From positions 403,426-435,425 of the forward strand of contig NZ_LR134201.1 in NCBI RefSeq assembly GCF_900635955.1: a DNA stretch of 32,000 nt. Direction: 5' to 3'. This document shows positions 7,195 to 31,485 of the stretch, one piece after another. The notes beneath the pieces were generated by a model. The model made no database searches. It was not told the origin of the DNA and saw only the letters and a list, made by a program, of their open reading frames with translations. Both the position numbers and the translations under genes were made by a program. The DNA is from Cedecea lapagei. Its GTDB lineage: Bacteria; Pseudomonadota; Gammaproteobacteria; Enterobacterales; Enterobacteriaceae. Numbering within the stretch: position 1 is the stretch's first letter; each line of letters opens with the position of its first letter.

Positions 7195-8709
<1,515 letters not shown>

Positions 8710-18527: not shown

Positions 18528-19106
18528 TTAGCGGCGAATAAGAATAACGTTCAGCCATCGCTCATCCCGGTCAGGGCGAACATCGCGAGTGAGCCATTGC
18601 TCTGCTATCTCCAGCTCCGGCGGATCCTTTAACAAGGCTGTTAGCCTTGCCTCGTTGATATCGGTAAAGCTGCGGCCATCCTTCTCCCGTTCGCTATCGC
18701 CGTATTTAAACGAGAAGTACCAGATGCCTCCGGGTTTTAAGGCCGTCGCCAGCTTCTGCATCGTGCCGGGTAGCTGTGCAAAAGGCACATGCAGCAGCGA
18801 GGCGCAGCACCATATACCGTCGTACTCTTGCTGCGCATCTACATCGGCAAACGTCATTTGCCTCACCGGCAGACCGCTATGCTCTCGTGCCAGCATCACC
18901 AGTTCAGAAGATGCGTCGAAGGCATCTACCTGAAAGCCCATCTGCGTGAAGGCCAGCGCGTCCCGCCCGGAGCCGCACCCTGCATCCAGCACTTTTGCAC
19001 GGGCAGACAGGCGGCTGGTAAATGCGGCATACAGCGAGGACATATCCACGTTCACCGTGCCGTCGAAGAAGGCTTGGGCGTGGGTCTGGTAATAATCCTG
19101 GGGCAT
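18528..19106 (-). CDS. Class I SAM-dependent methyltransferase (small-molecule/TehB-UbiE-like fold)
   Basis: The 192-aa ORF has motif [16 protein letters not shown] and post-I DAFD, plus [12 protein letters not shown] and [11 protein letters not shown]. Its start codon overlaps the stop of the upstream HNH gene by 1 nt (TGATG). Confidence 0.8.
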
Positions 19107-20113
19107 CAGAAGGTAGCCTCTGCTTCCGTTTCGGGTTTCCAGGTATGAAATGCCCGCTCGTTTTTAACCACCTGCCAGTTAGCTTTGAGGAAGGCGAGGC
19201 GCTGTGCGGGGTTCTTACCGGTTTGCTGAACGATGGTCTGGTGGAGAGGCAGTTTACTCTGAATGAAAAATTCATTCCTGGTGTTCAGCCGCTCCAGATA
19301 ATTTAATTCCGCCAGGCGCGAGGATTTGCGGCTGTTACAGCTTTTGCAGGCAAGCACCAGGTTCCACACGCCGTTGATGTTCGGCACGTAGCTCCGGCCC
19401 GCCCAAGGAATGAAGTGGTCCACGTCTGCGAGCTGCTCATCGCCCGATTGGATGCTTATTGGCCTGTAGCAGTAGAAGCAGGAGCCTTTCTGGTAGCCGT
19501 TGATGCTGTCCCGGCAGCTGGTGATATTGACCCGGCGCTCGTTCACTCTGCTGAAGAGCAGGTTGTCTTCTGCGCTGTACTCCACGGCAACGAGATTGGT
19601 GGAAATGCCCGTCGCCCAGGCATGCTCCACCAGACGCCAGCGTGCTTCCGTCTCGATAATCAGGTTCTGGTACTGCTGCCGCTCGGCAAGCTGGTAGAAA
19701 TTATCCGTCAGCCGAATACCTTTATGCGTTTTGCGCTCGTCCAGGAAGAAGCGTTTATCCAGCTCCGCGAAATTCACGTTGTGAAAGGCATCAATCACGT
19801 TATTAAAACCGTCCCGCACCGTGGCCTCCAGGAGTGCGTTCAGAGTGAGTTCACCCCGGTTAAATTGCTCGCAGACGGCCAGGTACTTGCTGCTGGCGGA
19901 AGTGATTTGCTTTGGGGCATGGAGAAGATGCCTGCACAGATGCTGGCTGAACGGGAGCGCGAGCGCCTCCAGGGTAACCAGATCGCTGCCGGATTTATCT
20001 GTCTCATACAGGGCGTGCGCGAGGGCAAATTTGTAAGATGCGACGTTCTTTCCAAAAAGGATAACGCCGCGCCAGTAGTTCTCGAGCGCACGATCGTGCT
20101 GGATGAAATCCAT
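19106..20113 (-). CDS. HNH endonuclease-domain protein with an uncharacterised ~230-aa N-terminal domain
   Basis: Starting at ATG 20113 (MDFIQHDRALENYW...) gives 335 aa. The C-terminal zinc-finger HNH reads CFYC...DVDHFIPW...NGVWNLVLACKSCNSRK. The 52 upstream codons in the track ORF look non-coding. Confidence 0.78.
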   Translation of the reverse strand: MDFIQHDRALENYWRGVILFGKNVASYKFALAHALYETDKSGSDLVTLEALALPFSQHLCRHLLHAPKQITSASSKYLAVCEQFNRGELTLNALLEATVRDGFNNVIDAFHNVNFAELDKRFFLDERKTHKGIRLTDNFYQLAERQQYQNLIIETEARWRLVEHAWATGISTNLVAVEYSAEDNLLFSRVNERRVNITSCRDSINGYQKGSCFYCYRPISIQSGDEQLADVDHFIPWAGRSYVPNINGVWNLVLACKSCNSRKSSRLAELNYLERLNTRNEFFIQSKLPLHQTIVQQTGKNPAQRLAFLKANWQVVKNERAFHTWKPETEAEATF

Positions 20114-20320
20114 ACGTGTCCTGTTACGGTTTGGCGGTGCAAGGGGATGGGTACGAAAACCCGTAACTGGATCACATAACAAATGAAAGCTGATGTAAAC
20201 CGTAGAGCGATAGATTTGCTGAATGTGTGAGGTGGAGGAGTGCTTATCAGATGGGGAAGGGTATTCCAAATGGGAGCGCTGAAAAATTCAGCACTTAACA
20301 ACACTTAGGAACCGCGCCGC

Positions 20321-20376: not shown

Positions 20377-20461
20377 GCCGAAGTGGCGAAATCGGTAGAC
20401 GCAGTTGATTCAAAATCAACCGTAGAGATACGTGCCGGTTCGAGTCCGGCCTTCGGCACCA
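20377..20461 (+). tRNA. leuX: tRNA-Leu (anticodon CAA)
   Basis: The 85-nt sequence GCCGAAGTGGCGAAATCGGTAGACGCAGTTGATTCAAAATCAACCGTAGAGATACGTGCCGGTTCGAGTCCGGCCTTCGGCACCA has anticodon CAA at 20411-20413, a long variable arm and an encoded CCA. It is essentially identical to E. coli leuX as I recall it. Confidence 0.97.
20442..20461 (+). repeat. attL core (3' end of leuX), direct repeat of 31466-31485
   Basis: gagtccggccttcggcacca here compares with gagtccggccttcgcaccat at 31466-31485. They are identical over the 20 aligned bases apart from one deleted G in the distal copy. Confidence 0.8.
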
Positions 20462-20624
20462 TTAGTACTTCCAAGACTATCCGAGAAAGTCCAATTTTCC
20501 CTTAAAAATCAATGCTTGTAGTGTTTATTACGTCCTGCATCGTCCGAGATAGTCCGTTGAAATCCGGGGGGCACTGGGGGCATAATTGGGGGCATCTTAA
20601 CTTCGATTAGAAATGTGCCCCCAA

Positions 20625-21887
20625 ATGAAGCTCAATGCCAGGCAGGTAGAGACCGCAAAGCCCAAAGACAAAAACTATAAAATGGCCGACGGCGGCGGTT
20701 TGTATCTTGAGGTTTCGGCTAAGGGTTCTAAATACTGGCGCATGAAATACAGACGTCCTTCTGACAAAAAAGAGGATCGCCTGGCATTTGGTGTTTGGCC
20801 GACCGTGACTCTTGCGGAAGCAAGGGCAAAACGTGATGAAGCCAAAAAGCTATTAGTTCAGGGCATCGACCCAAAAGCCGAACAGAAGGAAGCTCAGGCC
20901 GAGAACGCTGGGGCATATACTTTCGAAACCATCGCCCGCGAATGGCATGCCAGTAATAAACGCTGGAGTGAAGACCATCGCTCGCGCGTTCTTCGTTATC
21001 TTGAGCTGTATATCTTCCCTTATATTGGTTCATCTGATATTCGTCAGCTCAAAACCAGCCAGCTATTAGCCCCGATTAAAAAAGTTGATGCAAGTGGCAA
21101 GCATGACGTCGCACAGCGCCTTCAACAGCGCGTCACGGCCATAATGCGTTACGCCGTACAGAACGATTACATCGACTCCAATCCGGCCAGTGACATGGCC
21201 GGTGCGTTATCTACAACCAAAGCGCGACACTATCCCGCATTACCCTCCAGCCGCTTCCCTGAGTTTCTTGCGCGTCTTGCCGCATACCGTGGCCGTGTAA
21301 TGACACGGATCGCGGTCGAGCTTTCACTGCTGACTTTTGTTCGCTCTAGCGAAATGCGTTTTGCCCGTTGGGATGAGTTTGATTTTGAAAAGGCTCTCTG
21401 GCGCATACCGGCGAAGCGAGAAGAGATAAAAGGCGTGCGTTACTCCTACCGTGGCATGAAGATGAAAGAGGAACATATTGTTCCACTTAGCCTACAAGCT
21501 GTGGCGTTGTTAGAGCAGCTCAAGCAAATCAGTGGTGATAAAGAGCTGCTCTTTCCGGGGGATCACGACGCAACGAAGGTCATGAGTGAAAACACTGTGA
21601 ATAGTGCGTTACGCACGATGGGCTATGACACTAAGACGGAGGTTTGCGGGCATGGTTTTAGGACTATGGCGCGAGGTGCTCTAGGAGAGTCGGGGTTATG
21701 GAGCGATGACGCGATAGAACGGCAACTGAGCCATTCAGAACGCAATAATGTACGCGCTGCGTATATTCATACATCTGAGCATTTGGATGAACGACGTTTG
21801 ATGGTGCAGTGGTGGGCTAACTATCTCGATGCCAACAAAAATGAATTTGTAACTCCATTCGATTATGCAAAACATCAAACATATTGA
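20625..21887 (+). CDS. int: P4-type tyrosine integrase (alternative start 20613)
   Basis: MKLNARQVETAKPKDKNYKMADGGGLYLEVSAKGSKYWRMKYR is the typical P4-Int/IntB N-terminus. The C-terminal catalytic region reads HGFRTMARGALGE...HSERNNVRAAYIH. It lies immediately downstream of the tRNA. Confidence 0.94.
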   Translation: MKLNARQVETAKPKDKNYKMADGGGLYLEVSAKGSKYWRMKYRRPSDKKEDRLAFGVWPTVTLAEARAKRDEAKKLLVQGIDPKAEQKEAQAENAGAYTFETIAREWHASNKRWSEDHRSRVLRYLELYIFPYIGSSDIRQLKTSQLLAPIKKVDASGKHDVAQRLQQRVTAIMRYAVQNDYIDSNPASDMAGALSTTKARHYPALPSSRFPEFLARLAAYRGRVMTRIAVELSLLTFVRSSEMRFARWDEFDFEKALWRIPAKREEIKGVRYSYRGMKMKEEHIVPLSLQAVALLEQLKQISGDKELLFPGDHDATKVMSENTVNSALRTMGYDTKTEVCGHGFRTMARGALGESGLWSDDAIERQLSHSERNNVRAAYIHTSEHLDERRLMVQWWANYLDANKNEFVTPFDYAKHQTY

Positions 21888-21897
21888 TGTTGAGAGT

Positions 21898-21932
21898 ATT
21901 TGCCTCTCTCTTTTCGAGAGAGAGGCAAATGC
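21898..21932. terminator. Bidirectional hairpin between the convergent int and cargo genes
   Basis: atttgcctctctc (21898-21910) pairs with gagagaggcaaat (21918-30), a 13-bp stem. It is followed by gctttt on the plus strand. Confidence 0.6.
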
Positions 21933-21934
21933 TT

Positions 21935-24688
21935 TTAAGCAGAAACAATCCTTCTATAGCGTTGACTAAATGCGTCTCTGCCCCCTTCCATTATGTCACA
22001 GATGTTTTTTCTTACTTCACGTTCTTGTAATCCTCCAAAGGAAAGGAAATCAGTGATACCTGACTGCTGGCTTAATGAAACAACTAGTTCAGAGTCTCCG
22101 TTCACAACAATGTTAGGATTGTGAGTTATTATAATTATTTGCCTTTTGCATTTGCTTTCTTTTATTTTCTTCACAATAAGCTCATAAACTAGTTGGTTAT
22201 CTAAATCATCTTCAGGCTGATCTAAAATTATAGGGTCATCTCCATAGGAAAGTAAAAATGCGAGAACTGTTGCTGCCTTCTGGCCTGCTGAGCCCTGAGA
22301 TAGATCTTTAAATCTTCGACCATCATTATATTTTACTGTGATTGAATCACTAGGGAACCAGCATATTAAGGCGGTGACCTCTTCCTCAGACAATGAGTTT
22401 TTAAAATCGAAGAAACGCTTGCTTAACTTCACATCCAATATTGTGTTAGCGGTTTTATCAAAAAATCCATTTTTTAGGTCTTGTATTTTATTTATAATCC
22501 CATCATTGTCCTCTGAGATTTCTTTAATCTTAGTGTTTAATATATTTAAAAAACCATTATCATCTTCATTGTATATTTCATTGCTGAATGTAGTATCATT
22601 TTTATCGATAGCGTTTCTAAAACTACTTTCAAGGAATTGTTTATCACCACAAAAATCAACATTAACTTTAAAGTTAGCATTATTATCATTTATGTCGACA
22701 AGGAATTGTCTTCTCCGGGCTGTGATTTCCTTACGAAGTTCAACTAATTTATTGTAACTTTGAACAATTTCTGATTCTTTTTGTTCAATGGTTTTTTCAT
22801 CGGCAGCGATTTTACTTAATCGTTCTGACAGTGCTTTCCTTGTACCAATAAGGCTTTCATACTCGCTTGGGTTATTAACCCCACTAGCTTGTAGGTTAGC
22901 TACTAATGTGGTGTATTGATTTTTATTGGCAATGATTTCTTGCTTCAATGCAGATGAGTCAAACCAATTGCTTAGACCTTTAATTTCGTCAGTGACATCA
23001 TTGATGGTCTTATTGAATGTGATAATATTATCTTCAACTTTTTGTTGAAGCTCTAGGATTTTGTTTTGGGTAGTCGTTTCATTTTGATTGATAAAAAGTT
23101 CAGGATTGACTTCAAGTTTAATTGGTCTGGTTTGAGTGATGTAACTAGTTATATTTTCTAAGAAATCAACATTTCCTGTAATGAAATTACGTATCAAATT
23201 ATCTTGGTTTAAAGATTTCTGATAATTTGCTAATATGCTAGCATGACTGGATCTTTCAATAGATGCTATTTTTTGATTGATATCATTTAATTGACCGGTT
23301 AAGGTACTTTTAGTGGATATATTTGTCTTTAAATCTTTAACTTCTCTTCTTAACTGAAAAATTGTGCTAACTTCATTTTCCCATTTATAGTTCCATTCGG
23401 TTAAGTTAACAATGCTTGACTCATCAATCAGGTTTAAAAGATAATTTGGTGAGCGAGATATTTCATATATTTGCTTTTGACTAAATATTTTCACGGGGAA
23501 TCTACTTATTACATTCCCTTCTTCTTGGATGACGTTTTGCCCATCAATTCGGTTTATGGATATTTGCTGGTCGCCATATCTCCATTCTAACTTATAATGA
23601 TTTTCTCCTTTTAAGTACTCTACGTGAATGCTACTATCTTCTAAAAAGACACCATCATCATCTCTGCTCTGTGCTTTTTTGGCTAGTTTAGAATAAGAGT
23701 TAAACATTTCTTTGTTGGATGATAACTGCTCCAGCTCTTTCTCTCTTCCCAAAGCCGTTCTCATAAATTCTAAAATGGTTGATTTACCGCTTCCTCTCCC
23801 ACCTATAATACAATTTAACCATGGGTGAAACTGTATTGAAAATTCATTTATTCTCCCGCAGTATTTAGTTTTGTTTATCTTTATGGATGTAATTCTGTTT
23901 TCCGCGTAAATATTTGGAGAGTTTGGGTATTGATCTGATCTTTTTAATGAGTCATCACCGTCAAATAAAGCAAGCTTTAATCCATCAATTGATGGTGTAC
24001 CCATTTTTACCCACGTAAAAGCTCTACCAACTCTGTTTGGGTGGTGAGAATCTGAACCAATTACCTCAGGAAGTCCTGTTTGTAACGAAACATACCCATG
24101 TAGTGGACTTGAACCTGGCTGGTTGGTTTCATATTCATCATGCGTTCTTATTATTTCAACTGCAGAAGCATTAGTAAGTATCTGCTTTAGGGTCGCACCT
24201 GAAGAATGAACGGTGCAAAGCCCGCTCGCTTTGTCAATATGTGCTGGAATCGCAACTCCCCCACGATTAATGATTAAATCAATAACGTCTTGCGGACTGA
24301 TTTGAGTTACTGCATCACTATCCCCTTCTGTACCGGAGTAGTTAGTTGCACCAATTATCTGAGATATAAAGCTAGATGTTTTATCAATGTCGAATATACC
24401 TAAAATATGAATGTTACCATGTGCTGTAATCTCTATACTTGGAAATATGTATATTGAATGCCCTTCTGATCTTAAATTTTCTGCTTCTATCTTTAATCTG
24501 TCGATCCATGACCCAGTATTATGATCGGTCACTGCTATGCATTCAATTCCGTGTTGAATATAATCTAATAACCATTGCCTCGGGGTCATTGTTTGTTTTA
24601 TTTGATGGTCTGCTTTACCGTAATCCATTGATGCGGGTGTATGTGTGTGGAAATCAAACTTCCACCACTTCGAACCTATTTGCTGCAT
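21935..24688 (-). CDS. PHP-domain phosphoesterase fused to a Rad50/SbcC/RecN-like coiled-coil ABC ATPase (candidate single-gene defence protein)
   Basis: The 917-aa ORF has a strong SD (caggaggatgtcATG). PHP motifs are FDFHTHTP (aa 11-18), VTDHN (53-57), IPAHID and GSDSHH (211-216). Walker A GGRGSGKST is at aa 296-304. A long K/E/N/I-rich central region follows. Then come LSQGSAGQK, Walker B IILDQPEDDLD (about aa 820) and ITHNPN. The gene is markedly AT-rich relative to its flanks. Confidence 0.85.
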   Translation of the reverse strand: MQQIGSKWWKFDFHTHTPASMDYGKADHQIKQTMTPRQWLLDYIQHGIECIAVTDHNTGSWIDRLKIEAENLRSEGHSIYIFPSIEITAHGNIHILGIFDIDKTSSFISQIIGATNYSGTEGDSDAVTQISPQDVIDLIINRGGVAIPAHIDKASGLCTVHSSGATLKQILTNASAVEIIRTHDEYETNQPGSSPLHGYVSLQTGLPEVIGSDSHHPNRVGRAFTWVKMGTPSIDGLKLALFDGDDSLKRSDQYPNSPNIYAENRITSIKINKTKYCGRINEFSIQFHPWLNCIIGGRGSGKSTILEFMRTALGREKELEQLSSNKEMFNSYSKLAKKAQSRDDDGVFLEDSSIHVEYLKGENHYKLEWRYGDQQISINRIDGQNVIQEEGNVISRFPVKIFSQKQIYEISRSPNYLLNLIDESSIVNLTEWNYKWENEVSTIFQLRREVKDLKTNISTKSTLTGQLNDINQKIASIERSSHASILANYQKSLNQDNLIRNFITGNVDFLENITSYITQTRPIKLEVNPELFINQNETTTQNKILELQQKVEDNIITFNKTINDVTDEIKGLSNWFDSSALKQEIIANKNQYTTLVANLQASGVNNPSEYESLIGTRKALSERLSKIAADEKTIEQKESEIVQSYNKLVELRKEITARRRQFLVDINDNNANFKVNVDFCGDKQFLESSFRNAIDKNDTTFSNEIYNEDDNGFLNILNTKIKEISEDNDGIINKIQDLKNGFFDKTANTILDVKLSKRFFDFKNSLSEEEVTALICWFPSDSITVKYNDGRRFKDLSQGSAGQKAATVLAFLLSYGDDPIILDQPEDDLDNQLVYELIVKKIKESKCKRQIIIITHNPNIVVNGDSELVVSLSQQSGITDFLSFGGLQEREVRKNICDIMEGGRDAFSQRYRRIVSA

Positions 24689-24818
24689 GACATCCTCCTG
24701 TCAGATTAATGGTTCATTATGATTTTTTTGCTTTTCAGTGTTACCAGACCTACTTTAACCCTTTTTTATATCCCAAACATCCTACCAAAATATAATTAAT
24801 TAATACTTACCGCGCGCA

Positions 24819-24837
24819 ATGCTCTCCCCGCCACGCC
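24819..24837 (-). other. P2/186-family cos site (cohesive-end sequence)
   Basis: atgctctccccgccacgcc is the reverse complement of GGCGTGGCGGGGAGAGCAT. From memory the 186 cos is GGCGTGGCGGGGAAAGCAT and the P2 cos is GGCGAGGCGGGGAAAGCAC, giving 1 and 3 mismatches. It sits between the cargo and psu, as in P4. Confidence 0.5.
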
Positions 24838-24935
24838 TGCCCGCTTCAGGGGGCGGTTTTAATGCAGGTGCATGAGAGGGCTCAGGACGCGCCAGCACTG
24901 GTGCGGCGGGGTGTGAAAAAATACGGGGAATAAAT

Positions 24936-24975
24936 GCAAAACCATGCAGCGTATGCATGCATGGTTATTTTTATT
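24936..24975 (-). terminator. Hairpin terminator after the sid-delta-psu operon
   Basis: aaccatgca (24940-24948) pairs with tgcatggtt (24958-24966). On the minus strand it is followed by TTTTGCATTT, and on the plus strand by ATTTTTATT. Confidence 0.5.
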
Positions 24976-25054
24976 AAATAAAAGCGGATTTTCGGGGCGT
25001 TTTATGCGGATTTTTTGCTCTTCTGCGCGGTCAGCCGGTGCATGAAAACCGGGC

Positions 25055-25567
25055 TCAGTGTCTGGCCTGATTATCTGTCCGGGATGCCCTGTCAGGCCGG
25101 AACCCAATGGCCGTCAGAATATCCCGGTCGTCCTCCGCATAATGCACCTCAACCCCGCTTGCCAGATGGACGGATAAGGCTTCGCGGATGCTGGCGGCAG
25201 CGCGGTCGAGGGCGCATTCCCTGACCCTTTCCGGCAGTTCGCGGAGGTGCATCACCTCGGGTGCCAGGGCAACGGCCAGCGCCGTGCCGTTCTCCTGCAT
25301 AAAGGCGTGGAGCTGGCGACGGATGCTGATTCGCTGTACCGCCTCATGGTCGCGGATGTAACACCCGGCAGACTGGCTGACCTCCCGTTTTTTCAGGTCG
25401 GCGGCATTGCGCAGCGCCTGTATTTCCTCCGGCTCCGGGGGGCGACCGGTGAGCTCCCGCTCCCGGAGTGCCATCTCAGCCTGTGCCAGCCCGGCTTTGG
25501 CGGTCAGCCAGGCAGTTTTGCTTTTCTGGCAGACCTCAAAGGCCTGCTCCAGTGGTGTACGATTCAT
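25055..25567 (-). CDS. psu: Polarity suppression protein Psu (capsid decoration / Rho inhibitor) homologue
   Basis: The 170-aa ORF has LEQAFEVCQKSKTAWL...AGCYIRDHEAVQRISIRRQLHAFMQENGTALAVALAPE...DILTAIGFRPD. This parallels P4 Psu as I recall it (LQQAFDTCQNNKAAWL...AGRYIRSHEAVQHISIRDRLNDFMQQHGTALAAALAPE...DILTTIGFRPD). Confidence 0.85.
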   Translation of the reverse strand: MNRTPLEQAFEVCQKSKTAWLTAKAGLAQAEMALRERELTGRPPEPEEIQALRNAADLKKREVSQSAGCYIRDHEAVQRISIRRQLHAFMQENGTALAVALAPEVMHLRELPERVRECALDRAAASIREALSVHLASGVEVHYAEDDRDILTAIGFRPDRASRTDNQARH

Positions 25568-25582: not shown

Positions 25583-25828
25583 TCAGTGGCGCAGTGACGA
25601 GCGGGCGCAGTCCAGCACGCGACGGGGTGGCACAGCGGCCGCCGGAGCAGGCTCTGGCGGGGCGGTCTCTGCCGGAGGGCGTATCACCTCGTCAATGGAT
25701 TCGATGGTGCGGAACGTGGCCGAGCAGAACACGTTGACGCACTGGAGATAGCTCTGTTTGACGTTATCCGACAGGTAACGACTGGTGCGCACATGGGCAG
25801 CCTTTTTGCAGAACGGGCAGCGCATCAT
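25583..25828 (-). CDS. delta: Ogr/Delta-family zinc-finger late transcription activator (single-domain, 81 aa)
   Basis: MRCPFCKKAAHVRTSRYLSDNVKQSYLQCVNVFCSATF carries the CxxC...CxxxC Ogr/Delta zinc finger. Its start overlaps the sid stop (ATGA). It lies between sid and psu, as in P4. Confidence 0.85.
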   Translation of the reverse strand: MMRCPFCKKAAHVRTSRYLSDNVKQSYLQCVNVFCSATFRTIESIDEVIRPPAETAPPEPAPAAAVPPRRVLDCARSSLRH

Positions 25829-26667
25829 GCTCTTGCCCTCGCCGCTGCCTGCGCTTTTTCCTTCAGGGCGACCTCCTCAGCCAGTCTGCGCTGGTGCCAG
25901 GACGCATTTTGCTGGGCGGCTGTCTGGTATTTACTCATATCGACGCCGGGAAGTTCAGGGCGATTGAGGCCAAGCTGCGAGATAACCGGCTCCTGATTCA
26001 TATCCCACGCGTAGAACTCACTCTGAGTGAATACCGTGCCGCCCAGCTCGGCCATCAGGGTGGCATGGGGCAGTTTTTCCCCTTGCATCTGCATGGCGCG
26101 CAGGCGGAGCCTGAATGCCCGCACCAGAGCCGGAGAGATATTCTGGATGGCGGCTGACCACTCATGCTGTGCATACACGACCAGGGCGTCACGGTGGGTA
26201 TTGATACATGCCATGCCTGACTCGCGTGAAGCGGCCTCGGCCTGCGCTTTTTCTTCCCTGAGACCTGCCACCATCTCAGTTTTCAGCGCAATAAGGTCAT
26301 TTGCTATCTCACGGTCGGCGACCTGCTGGTAACGCTCGGCTTTCATTTCCGGGGTCATCGCCCCCAGCACTTCGCGGAAGCGGCTGCGCCAGCTTTTTTC
26401 AGCCTGTTCGCGTTCCTTCTGCGCGCTCTCGATTTCCTGCTCGTTGCGGGTAATCGCCCGTGTTGCCTCCTCCAGTTTCAGCATATTGTCTGCGTGCACG
26501 GCTTTTGCCTGGCTGAAGGCTGCCATCGCATTATTCAGGTCAGCCTCAGCTTTCTGTCGGGCTGGCTCATTCACGGTTTCCAGCGCGGCATTGATAACCG
26601 CGCGGGTGGTCTCATCCTGGGTACTGCCAAGGGTTTTCATTACTGCGTTAAACATGTCAGCTTTCAT
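25825..26667 (-). CDS. sid: Sid-like capsid size-determination (external scaffold) protein
   Basis: The 280-aa ORF is alpha-helical and A/E/Q-rich. It is the first gene of the sid-delta-psu block, downstream of an Ogr/Delta-type late promoter. It shows loose similarity to P4 Sid from memory. Confidence 0.65.
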   Translation of the reverse strand: MKADMFNAVMKTLGSTQDETTRAVINAALETVNEPARQKAEADLNNAMAAFSQAKAVHADNMLKLEEATRAITRNEQEIESAQKEREQAEKSWRSRFREVLGAMTPEMKAERYQQVADREIANDLIALKTEMVAGLREEKAQAEAASRESGMACINTHRDALVVYAQHEWSAAIQNISPALVRAFRLRLRAMQMQGEKLPHATLMAELGGTVFTQSEFYAWDMNQEPVISQLGLNRPELPGVDMSKYQTAAQQNASWHQRRLAEEVALKEKAQAAARARA

Positions 26668-27267: not shown

Positions 27268-27486
27268 ATGCCGGTATCTGATATCACTCAGGAGCGTTTT
27301 TTACGCCTGCCCGAAGTGCTTCACCTGTGCGGCCTGTCCCGCTCCACGGTTTACGACCTCATCAGCCGGAACGCTTTCCCACAGCAGATTTCCCTCGGCG
27401 GTAAAAATGTGGCCTGGGCACACACCGAAATCACCGCCTGGATGGCCGACCGTATCGCCGCCCGTAACCGGGGCTGTGACGCATGA
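27268..27486 (+). CDS. alpA: AlpA/Vis-family phage transcriptional regulator / excisionase-like wHTH protein
   Basis: The 72-aa ORF has the canonical AlpA motif [23 protein letters not shown]...[23 protein letters not shown]. Confidence 0.88.
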
Positions 27487-27613
27487 GGATCCCCGTTCTG
27501 CAAAAAGCCCCTTTTTCTGGCTTGCGTCCGTTGTGTGTTTCCTGGTACAGTTTTCCCGCTGTCGCAAAATCGGCAGCCGGAATTGGCGTTCCGAATAACT
27601 TCAAGGCGACACG

Positions 27614-27637
27614 ACACGCGCCATGCGTGTTTTTTTA
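27614..27637 (+). terminator. Intrinsic terminator in the leader between alpA and the C4-like RNA
   Basis: acacgc (27614-27619) pairs with gcgtgt (27625-27630) and is followed by a T-run of six to seven. Confidence 0.5.
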
Positions 27638-27709
27638 TGTCGTTGCTCAGGCACACCCATATTCAGGGCTGTGGTGTTTATTCGTGCACCAGGGTTCTAT
27701 TCTGATAAT

Positions 27710-27789
27710 GGTAGTCCGGGCGGGGCAGCCTTCGGGCTGGCCGGTTTCCTTGAAGGCCGGTTACGCCAACCCTGTTCGGGCTACCACCA
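27710..27789 (+). ncRNA. C4-like antisense immunity RNA (P1/P7 c4 and isrK family architecture), about 80 nt
   Basis: A 9-bp acceptor-like stem (27710-27718 with 27777-27785) is followed by ACCA. There is a UUCG-capped hairpin (cagcc-uucg-ggcug). A hairpin loop carries CCUUGAAGG (27748-27756) and a single-stranded ACGCCAA is at 27763-27769. Both are complementary to two flanking target sites, one of which covers the icd-like SD. Confidence 0.45.
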
Positions 27790-27845
27790 GTGAAATTGGC
27801 GTTTCCGGTGGTAGTTTTTCAAACTACTTCAAGGAGGCTGCCATC

Positions 27846-28040
27846 ATGGCTACAACCCTCACCCTGTCACACCCGCAATTCGTCTTTGTTTTCGCTGCCG
27901 TTCGCCGCGCAGACCGCAAACCCCGTATCTGTATGCTCCGCACCGTTGCCGGGGATGAACGTACCGCCCGTCTTTCCCTTGTTCGCGACTACATCCTCGC
28001 GTTTGCCGGTCGTCTGCCAGTGACGGAGGTGTGCGCATGA
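27846..28040 (+). CDS. Icd-like small protein (often annotated Ash-family in the long form starting at 27708)
   Basis: The 64-aa ORF has a strong SD (aaggaggctgccatcATG). The translation is [21 protein letters not shown]...[13 protein letters not shown]. Its position downstream of a C4-like RNA mirrors P1 c4-icd. Confidence 0.55.
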
Positions 28041-31465: not shown

Positions 31466-31485
31466 GAGTCCGGCCTTCGCACCAT
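31466..31485 (+). repeat. attR core of the satellite, which is also the attL-like junction for the next island
   Basis: gagtccggccttcgcaccat duplicates the leuX 3' end (20442-20461) with one G missing. Confidence 0.8.

Follow-up and report, generated by a model that had tools for sequence, protein, structure and literature searches.

Why does a P4-like satellite of an enterobacterium carry, between its integrase gene and its cos region, one large AT-rich gene that has been deposited under the name of a transporter subunit? The question is raised by a window of 32,000 nucleotides of Cedecea lapagei DNA (contig NZ_LR134201.1 of assembly GCF_900635955.1, positions 403,426 to 435,425), in which a satellite of about 11 kb, its extent given by attL and attR, resides at a tRNA-Leu(CAA) gene. 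All positions below are counted within this window. The gene under study, here called the cargo gene, lies at 21935..24688 on the minus strand and encodes a protein of 917 amino acids (aa). It is argued in the following that the protein is almost certainly a member of the Ppl/TrlF family, that an anti-phage role can be expected for it with good confidence by analogy with Escherichia coli Ppl, and that the locus as a whole is probably to be read as a Ppl/TrlF-family anti-phage nuclease carried as exchangeable satellite cargo. The family itself is already named and recently characterised, and the sequence of the cargo protein is ordinary for it. What is modestly new is a satellite-borne sub-clade that extends across Enterobacterales, together with distant relatives in BREX and type III restriction-modification (R-M) loci that often have a Schlafen/AlbA_2 partner.

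Architecture of the Cargo Protein

The cargo gene is identified by its open reading frame (ORF), which begins with ATG, and by PADLOC and NCBIfam profiles, and exactly this protein is on record as WP_126354451.1/VEB95324.1 of Cedecea lapagei. A housekeeping protein encoded in the window is likewise identical to a recorded sequence of that species. The start is well placed in the sense that M1 and the N-terminus line up with homologues from residue 1 in an alignment of 41 sequences, which reaches down to 42% identity and from which the motif conservation given below is taken. The protein is a single polypeptide in which an N-terminal PHP phosphoesterase is joined to an ATP-binding cassette (ABC) ATPase of the SMC/Rad50 class, with the two lobes of the ATPase split by a coiled coil of about 240 aa.

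The PHP domain (aa 1-250; 23939..24688, minus strand) is recognised from its motifs and their invariance, from the structural model, from fold matches and from the Pfam profile PHP_C. Its metal ligands are H14, H16, D22, H56, E86, H94, H150, D213, and H215, and all of these are invariant except E86, which is conserved to at least 90%. The N-lobe of the ATPase (aa 264-428; 23405..23899, minus strand), identified by Pfam, motifs, alignment and model, contains Walker A at G296-T304 with its lysine K302, and the Q-loop glutamine Q404. In the secondary structure of the AlphaFold model it is followed by the antiparallel coiled coil (aa 429-667; 22688..23404, minus strand), whose apex loop is at about residues 520-534, and then by a small mixed region (aa 668-781). 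The C-lobe (aa 782-917; 21938..22345, minus strand) closes the chain with the signature S800-A-G-Q803, Walker B residues D823/E826, the D-loop D827-D830 and the H-loop H856, as seen in motifs, alignment, model and the comparison with E. coli Ppl. G296, K302, S303, Q404, S800-A-G-Q803, D823, E826, D827, D830, and H856 are invariant in the alignment, and all the PHP and ATPase catalytic motifs are found also in E. coli Ppl. Judged from the sequence, all catalytic residues are intact. The mean column identity is 0.71 for the PHP domain and 0.79 for the C-lobe, and it is smallest, 0.45, for the coiled coil.

Profile and fold searches agree with this division. Pfam profiles above cutoff are SMC_N, AAA_21, AAA_23 and PHP_C (PF13263, 25.1 bits against a cutoff of 21.3), while the Pfam PHP profile PF02811 gives no score on the protein. 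The PHP assignment has its support in PF13263, in the full-length Ppl and TrlF profiles and in fold matches to PHP enzymes. The AlphaFold model has a pLDDT of 86.6 and a pTM of 0.72, and when it is compared with known folds by Foldseek, the ATPase part goes with the heads of SMC, Rad50, MukB, JetC and RecN, and the N-terminal domain with EndoQ, BAD_1165 and RNase AM. No CxxC zinc hook is found anywhere in the protein, and the apex loop 520-534 has no cysteine. Sequence and fold searches of the PDB gave no Ppl structure, and the sequence search there gave only SMC and AriA head fragments. PHROGs has no meaningful family for the protein.

Much of this had been anticipated in an earlier note on the window, made by a reader to whom only the letters and the ORF translations were given. 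Its ORF, 21935-24688 with 917 aa, alone between the integrase and the cos/psu-delta-sid block, is reproduced exactly by ORF calling, Pfam and cos homology, and each motif that it named is found where it had been placed: FDFHTHTP at residues 11-18, VTDHN at 53-57, IPAHID at 147-152, GSDSHH at 211-216, GGRGSGKST at 296-304 (nucleotides 23777-23803, with K302), LSQGSAGQK at 796-804, IILDQPEDDLD at 820-830, and ITHNPN at 854-859. The note's view of one polypeptide with PHP and Rad50/SMC-like ABC ATPase parts is borne out by Pfam and NCBIfam, the alignment, AlphaFold and Foldseek; of the checks it proposed, profile searches support both the PHP and the ABC-ATPase domain (PHP_C, SMC_N and AAA_23, with PF02811 itself silent), and the AlphaFold model (pLDDT 86.6) has a Rad50-like head and a coiled coil. 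The note had put the length of the coiled coil at about 400 aa. A coiled coil is present, but it covers about 240 aa (429-667), and the remainder of the stretch is ABC N-lobe and the small mixed domain.

Membership in the Ppl/TrlF Family

The protein matches the PADLOC profile for Ppl (PDLC02208) with E = 5.7e-149 and 495.9 bits, and this match extends from residue 3 to 916 of the protein and from position 2 to 894 of the 894 positions of the profile. The NCBIfam profile NF045780, "TrlF family AAA-like ATPase", is matched over positions 2-943 of 944 with 650.1 bits, well above its cutoff of 350. Against WP_015059139.1, the annotated E. coli Ppl, the cargo protein aligns with 28% identity and E = 7e-121, colinearly over residues 4-916 and with all catalytic motifs kept. 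Since this E. coli protein scores 1330.4 on the Ppl equivalog model NF042955 and passes the TrlF model as well, Ppl proper is nested within TrlF. From all this the membership of the cargo protein in the Ppl/TrlF family is as good as certain, and the kinship with Ppl and with the TrlF ATPases of NCBI, which the earlier note had suggested as possible, is confirmed by the PADLOC and NCBIfam profiles and by the alignment with E. coli Ppl.

The family is large. A word-indexed search gives more than 3,300 proteins. At 50% identity and E <= 1e-30 the family comprises about 1,210 clusters, and among the matches listed almost all hits are full-length, of about 900-950 aa. Close homologues that have a name are nearly all labelled TrlF. 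The origin of that name could not be traced, as the literature search for it gave only spectroscopy (TRLFS) papers. Beyond its own satellite-borne sub-clade, the cargo protein is 35-47% identical to the other branches, and the branches other than that of E. coli Ppl are related to each other by the same 35-47%.

The Variable Slot of the Satellite

The cargo gene stands alone in its slot, with the convergent integrase gene on one side and the cos region on the other. The slot can be defined as the interval from the integrase stop codon to the end of the cos-region homology (21888..24811), as homology to P4 ends at 24812. Over this interval the G+C content falls to 0.28-0.42. For the cargo gene itself it is 0.349, against 0.566 in the rest of the window, and in blocks of 60 nucleotides it varies from 0.22 to 0.50 with a median of 0.33, compared with a flank median of 0.57; the abrupt change of composition reported in the earlier note is borne out by these values.

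What occupies the corresponding slot differs from one satellite to another. In P4 itself it is filled by gop-beta-cII, according to the P4 annotation, and in an E. coli leuX satellite by a SIR2 gene, and insertion sequences are also found there in E. coli relatives. A psu-int hotspot of P4-like satellites is defined in the available text of Rousset et al. (2022), and the cargo gene has both properties of defence-hotspot cargo: its site is between psu/cos and int, and other genes take the slot in related satellites. It follows that the cargo gene is an exchangeable gene in the int-cos (psu-int) hotspot of a P4-like satellite. The earlier note had assigned it to this same slot, on which Pfam, the comparison with P4 and the cos homology agree, and the survey of the interval that it proposed gives the SIR2 gene or insertion sequences in E. 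coli and gop-beta-cII in P4.

Putative expression signals are located at 24694..24744 on the minus strand, identified by a consensus scan and by reading of the sequence. A Shine-Dalgarno sequence, AGGAGG, is at 24699..24694, 5 nucleotides 5' of the ATG, and further 5' of the gene there is a pair resembling -35 and -10 elements, GTAACA-17-CATAAT at 24744..24716, which is a pattern match from the consensus scan. The cargo gene is therefore likely to have expression signals of its own.

The Surrounding Satellite

The assignment of the element rests on the joint presence of int, psu, delta, sid, alpA, an alpha primase, CI/C4 RNA, cos, and att repeats at a tRNA gene, and on identity to P4 DNA of 78% over alpha, ORF106 and crr. 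The tRNA-Leu(CAA) gene, of leuX type, is at 20377..20461 on the plus strand (ARAGORN and Rfam tRNA), and its 3' end, at about 20442-20461, forms the attL core, which is repeated at attR. The repeat, GAGTCCGGCCTTCGCACCA at 31466..31484 on the plus strand, is found by local alignment and reproduces the 3' end of the tRNA gene except for the loss of one base. Next to attL is a P4-type tyrosine integrase gene (20613..21887, plus strand; Pfam Arm-DNA-bind_3, Phage_int_M and Phage_integrase), which is convergent with the cargo gene. On the other side of the slot, the cos region (24812..25004, minus strand) is homologous to that of P4, with 75% identity over 199 nucleotides spanning the P4 cos junction. 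Within it the 19-nucleotide cohesive-end sequence GGCGTGGCGGGGAGAGCAT is found at 24837..24819, and 16 of its 19 bases are those of the P2/P4 cos sequence, where 0.04 such matches would be expected by chance.

On the minus strand follow psu (25055-25567; Pfam Psu and PHROG Psu), delta (25583-25828; Pfam Ogr_Delta) and a sid-like gene (25825-26667; PHROG Sid-like), the E. coli counterparts of which are annotated as sid or capsid protein. On the plus strand are alpA (27268-27486; Pfam) and the immunity region that corresponds to the CI RNA of P4, where Rfam recognises isrK at 27558-27635 and a C4 antisense RNA at 27704-27791 (both within 27558-27791). An ASH/repressor-like gene of 185 aa (27483-28040, plus strand; Pfam and PHROGs) overlaps both of these RNAs. 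DUF5375 and then the alpha primase, the latter extending to 30929 on the plus strand, complete the element (PHROGs and gene calls in the locus L081).

Three observations concern the ends of the satellite and its flanks. A second integrase gene starts at about 31682, right after attR, and is cut off by the end of the window; its counterpart in L081 is called as an Arm-DNA-bind_3/Phage_integrase protein of 428 aa. The displaced tRNA-Leu remnant is thus occupied by a second integrative element, in tandem with the first. On the opposite flank, between ahr and tRNA-Leu (18528-20269), are two abutting genes, for an HNH-domain protein of 387 aa and for an S-adenosylmethionine methyltransferase of 192 aa, where the stop codon of the first and the start of the second overlap by one base, and where PADLOC gives weak matches to a PtuB-type HNH protein and to mad2. 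As ahr directly adjoins leuX in E. coli FG92-1, the two genes have the appearance of a small additional insertion. A HerA-like neighbour was considered as a defence partner and rejected, as it is the conserved chromosomal yjgR, which is found beside ahr and leuX in E. coli too. In the chromosomal part of the window, at 7954-8148, there is also a strong Rfam match (178.7 bits) to the Yersinia small RNA Ysr276, inside or antisense to long ORFs.

Relatives and Their Surroundings

The cluster at 90% identity has members in Cedecea, Salmonella (one member, found on 377 contigs), Citrobacter and Cronobacter. The satellite of Citrobacter murliniae is in essence the one described here, cargo included, and in Mangrovibacter and Buttiauxella int and cargo are found with partial psu. 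A relative in Klebsiella variicola with 77% identity is in a classic P4-like element. With relatives in Cronobacter (62%), Pantoea (62%) and Enterobacterales 8AC (50%), a variant satellite is encountered, in which DUF5375, a Zn-ribbon/Toprim/DUF927 primase, a sid/psu-like gene, Ogr/Delta and then the cargo follow each other on the same strand. At 43-45% identity the P4 context is lost: relatives in Pseudomonas and Xenorhabdus are in small integrase islets, and one in Aeromonas is isolated, with genes of metabolism and transport around it and 6-kb flanks that hold no integrase. Thus, from 50% to 100% identity and in at least seven genera, the branch is recurrently satellite-borne in Enterobacterales. 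Throughout the satellite-borne tier the G+C content of the gene is 0.33-0.36 in any host, with flanks at 0.48-0.59, and the cargo gene is AT-rich relative to every host; for E. coli ppl the value is 0.53.

The integrase of the window is 94-96% identical to those of the Mangrovibacter, C. murliniae and K. variicola elements with the same cargo. When the window is compared gene by gene with three such loci (L001, L003, L086), int is 94-96% identical and the cargo 77-95%, with psu at 50-53% and sid at 43%. That the identity of int tracks that of the cargo far better than do psu and sid is suggestive of an exchange of the two, as one module, between satellite backbones. In 5,426 complete E. coli genomes the cargo gene has no near-identity match, and only the satellite backbone gives matches, at about 81%; the gene is thus no part of the hotspot cargo of E. 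coli.

To see in what company the wider family is found, the three nearest ORFs on each side were clustered for 80 species-representative loci, and representatives of the largest clusters were scanned. Six loci (L006, L009, L011, L012, L046, L053) have the relative inside a type 1 BREX system, between PglX and BrxHI/PglZ and next to BrxC, and in about seven (including L020, L025, L028, L033, L044) it is placed between Mod and Res of a type III R-M system, so that the genes sit as if they were accessory modules of these systems. Further relatives adjoin type ISP/IIG enzymes, IS66 or serine recombinases. No repair gene recurs as a neighbour among the 80 loci; relatives are in mobile and defence contexts and not in conserved repair operons, and the refutation foreseen in the earlier note, by orthologues mainly in such operons, does not apply. 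A conserved companion, in 29 of the 80 loci (e.g., L016, L020, L023, L028-L030, L033), is a gene of about 413 aa, next downstream on the same strand (+1), with Schlafen-AlbA_2 and HATPase_c_4 domains. The relatives so partnered are about 33-37% identical to the cargo protein, and the companion may be a partner or regulator in this part of the family.

Relatives are common on plasmids as well: of 1,162 plasmids with a match the majority are conjugative, and in 493 records the match is near-full-length; an IncF copy is found beside a type II R-M pair. The IncF TrlF gene of Klebsiella/E. coli (L084:6001-8754) is 89% identical to a BREX-embedded copy (L009:8001-10721) on a contig binned as an Oleidesulfovibrio metagenome-assembled genome, which means either very recent transfer across phyla or a mis-binned contig. 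A temperate Vibrio prophage of Vinavirales, with PM2-type capsid (L098, PQ189346.1, 1343-3959), has the system split into a PHP ORF and an ATPase ORF beside its integrase, at about 27% identity. Two Listeria "phage" records of 18-20 kb have a full-length relative at 26.5% identity.

Neither "Ppl" nor "PHP" occurs in the available text of Rousset et al. (2022) and its supplements, the E. coli tables included, two of these files being truncated. Ppl is likewise absent by name from the available text of a 2026 survey of P4 and P2 elements, where DefenseFinder and PADLOC were applied to 3,437 P4-like satellites and where the figure data may well include it, and from that of an Enterobacter satellite paper. 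As data given only in figures could hold Ppl, satellite carriage is not claimed here as unreported.

Predicted Mode of Action

The earlier note took trigger and mechanism to be uncharacterised, and this is where it was mistaken, as a mechanism for E. coli Ppl has been published (Xu et al., Mol Cell 2026;86:180-193) and a phage counter-defence is known. The note's designation of a candidate anti-phage system was right in that the gene is from a defence family, but it understates how well the family is known, given that a model devoted to it exists in PADLOC as well as at NCBI. In the literature as available, Ppl is credited to Gao et al. (2020), among other systems that consist of one gene. T7 is restricted by a strain expressing ppl from a plasmid, with no satellite, and Bas63 gp130 is the counter-defence. 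As relayed by citing papers, E. coli Ppl is a single-gene 3'-5' exonuclease on single-stranded DNA that becomes active only on two signals together (Xu et al. 2026). One is depletion of nucleoside triphosphates (NTPs) caused by the phage, which lifts an inhibition exerted by NTPs bound to the PHP and NTPase domains; the other is the detection of 3'-OH ends made by phage homing endonucleases, and an earlier title of the same work names T7 Gp5.3 as the maker of these ends. Gabija, Septu, KELShedu and QatD are placed by citing papers in one group with Ppl, that of NTP-gated nucleases, which are freed as NTP pools fall.

To exemplify what this would mean for the satellite, consider a cell with the cargo gene before and after infection, with the cargo protein acting as E. 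coli Ppl does. In the uninfected cell, NTPs on the PHP site and on the ATPase would hold the exonuclease off. After infection, the NTP pool would drop, and phage DNA ends with 3'-OH overhangs would arise, in the case of T7 through its homing endonuclease Gp5.3. The two changes together would free the nuclease, the phage DNA would be degraded from its 3' ends, and replication would stop. The satellite would gain in that its cargo shields the host, and hence the satellite, from unrelated lytic phages, as the context of the gene suggests.

The cohesive ends of P2 and P4 are 5'-protruding. The activating 3' overhang would therefore not be offered by them, and the cargo would be compatible with the satellite's own packaging. 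If the polarity of the ends is sensed, this might be what allows the satellite to carry a nuclease acting on DNA ends without harm to itself or to its helper.

Weighing the Alternatives

Several points weigh against the reading of the cargo gene as a Ppl-like anti-phage nuclease, and most of them concern the step from E. coli Ppl to the Cedecea protein. The mechanism would be carried over to this protein and its branch across an identity of only 28%. On the Ppl equivalog model NF042955 the cargo protein scores 606.7 bits, below the cutoff of 1000 that defines strict membership. Pairwise comparison sets E. coli Ppl apart as the family's outlier, 28-30% identical to each of the other branches. 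The sequence used for comparison, WP_015059139.1, is a gene of an E. coli plasmid (pGUE-NDM), annotated as ppl by PGAP, which may not be the allele used in the experiments, and the mechanistic detail on E. coli Ppl is second-hand, from citing papers. The Schlafen/AlbA_2 partner is absent at the Cedecea window and at the E. coli ppl loci, and its presence in 29 of 80 loci may be a sign that some members of the family operate in another arrangement. Finally, promoter-like sites near the cargo gene are fewer in the consensus scan than in shuffled sequence. As identity is 28%, the equivalog cutoff is missed and E. coli Ppl is an outlier, trigger and regulation could differ from those of E. coli Ppl, and by analogy the chances that they are the same are put here at about even.

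From these points arises the most serious rival, namely that the gene encodes a TrlF-family defence nuclease whose trigger or mode differs from that of E. coli Ppl, so that it would respond to another DNA structure, act on plasmids or other mobile elements, or cause abortive infection through damage to the cell's own DNA. It would fit with the 28-30% identity of E. coli Ppl to all other branches, when these are 35-47% identical to one another, and with the coiled coil, likely the sensing or dimerising element, being the least conserved part (0.45). The many relatives in BREX or type III R-M operons, or with a Schlafen-AlbA_2/HATPase_c_4 companion, suggest other regulatory wiring, and there are the IncF-plasmid copies beside R-M systems. 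Set against this, all catalytic and nucleotide-binding residues are common to the two proteins, which are colinear with no domain gained or lost, and the Cedecea gene stands alone, as E. coli Ppl does. A different trigger is therefore regarded as possible but doubtful. Of the same tentative standing is a more far-reaching proposal, in which the main TrlF branch, including the satellite sub-clade, would be no simple copy of E. coli Ppl but a lineage apart, long associated with the P4-type satellites of Enterobacterales, AT-rich throughout and in many cases tied to the integrase, with end-polarity sensing that spares satellite and helper, and with the relatives in BREX and type III R-M operons, many of them with a Schlafen-AlbA_2/HATPase_c_4 companion, as accessory effectors wired in another way than stand-alone Ppl.

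The other rivals take the gene out of defence. It could have a part in the life cycle of the satellite itself or in the contest with its helper phage, for instance by processing helper DNA of P2 type in favour of satellite packaging. It is true that satellites, P4-like or variant P4-like, harbour this branch at each identity level between 50% and 100% and in at least seven genera, and that integrase and cargo keep company as psu and sid drift apart. A core satellite function is, however, hard to reconcile with a slot that holds SIR2 or insertion sequences in E. coli and gop-beta-cII in P4; moreover, most of the wider family is encountered elsewhere, in BREX and R-M loci, on plasmids and in islets, and the relative that was tested needs no satellite for its defence against T7, as it acts from a plasmid. 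Such a role is therefore improbable. Housekeeping DNA repair, by a fused functional analogue of SbcCD/Mre11-Rad50 acting on chromosomal breaks or hairpins, could account for the ATPase fold, which is like the heads of Rad50, SMC and RecN, and for the weak RecN and Rad50 profile matches. These matches are far below their cutoffs, and there is neither a zinc hook nor any recurrent repair neighbour in the 80 loci; a gene that is in the variable slot of a mobile satellite, with a G+C content of 0.35 against 0.57, that is absent at near-identity from 5,426 complete E. coli genomes and patchy across genera, is very improbable as a repair gene. There is also the deposited annotation, by which the protein would be the ATP-binding subunit of an ABC transporter. 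It is called "cobalt transporter ATP-binding subunit" in VEB95324.1 and UniRef, and "PHP-associated domain-containing protein" in WP_126354451.1, and close fragments in Salmonella are labelled "ABC transporter"; in addition, the signature and Walker B region has weak local matches to ATPases of ECF/cobalt transporters. These matches extend over about 70 residues and reach 27 bits, against cutoffs of 315-463. With ATPase lobes split SMC-style by a coiled coil, an N-terminal PHP domain and no membrane partner gene adjacent, a transporter is ruled out by the architecture and has the smallest probability of all. The deposited names are wrong, misleading or uninformative.

With the Ppl/TrlF-family defence nuclease retained as the probable identity, the annotation of the gene should read Ppl/TrlF-family anti-phage nuclease on a P4-like satellite. 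No new class of system is opened by this. The catalogue of P4 hotspot cargo gains one system, of which a whole sub-clade circulates on satellites across genera of Enterobacterales, and several configurations of the family could be set against the published Ppl mechanism: those embedded in BREX or R-M loci, those partnered by Schlafen/AlbA_2, and the split version of the Vibrio prophage.

Comparison with Known Systems

Among named systems, Gabija GajA, Septu PtuA and PARIS AriA have local similarity to the ATPase domain of the cargo protein. Only their P-loop and signature regions match, with E from 1e-8 to 1e-4, and their nuclease modules are TOPRIM, HNH or separate effectors, so the cargo protein is not a member of these families.

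The likeness to SbcCD/Mre11-Rad50 is that a nuclease is combined with an ABC ATPase of the SMC/Rad50 class that has a coiled-coil insertion, and that DNA ends would be the substrate in both. The nuclease of the Cedecea protein, however, is a PHP domain and fused, whereas Mre11/SbcD is calcineurin-type and a separate subunit, and its coiled coil is short (about 240 aa) and without the CxxC zinc hook. The Rad50 profile NF003034 gives 14.3 bits against a cutoff of 700, and no gene for a calcineurin-type (Mre11/SbcD) partner is adjacent to the cargo gene. While SbcCD/Mre11-Rad50 is a housekeeping system, the cargo context is one of defence and mobile DNA. The description "fused analogue of SbcCD/Mre11-Rad50" in the earlier note therefore stands for the architecture and fails for zinc hook, partner and Rad50 profile (14 bits against 700).

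Other cargo of the P4 hotspot (gop-beta-cII, and SIR2, Septu, Kiwa, PARIS and retrons, among others; Rousset et al. 2022) shares with the Cedecea gene the slot, the AT-richness, the exchangeability and, probably, the property of being a transcription unit of its own, but it belongs to protein families other than Ppl/TrlF. Within TrlF (NF045780), a family name that carries no functional claim, many members belong to BREX or R-M loci of several genes, or are accompanied by a Schlafen/AlbA_2 protein, whereas the Cedecea gene stands alone. From E. coli Ppl the gene differs in carrier and composition, with an IncF-type plasmid and a gene G+C content of 0.53 in the one case and a P4-like satellite and 0.35 in the other. 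With E. coli Ppl it has in common that a single gene carried on mobile DNA encodes a PHP domain and a P-loop ABC ATPase in colinear order, with the motifs HxH, DHN, AHID, GSDxHH, GxRGSGKST, SxGQK, LDQPEDDLD and the H-loop present in both proteins.

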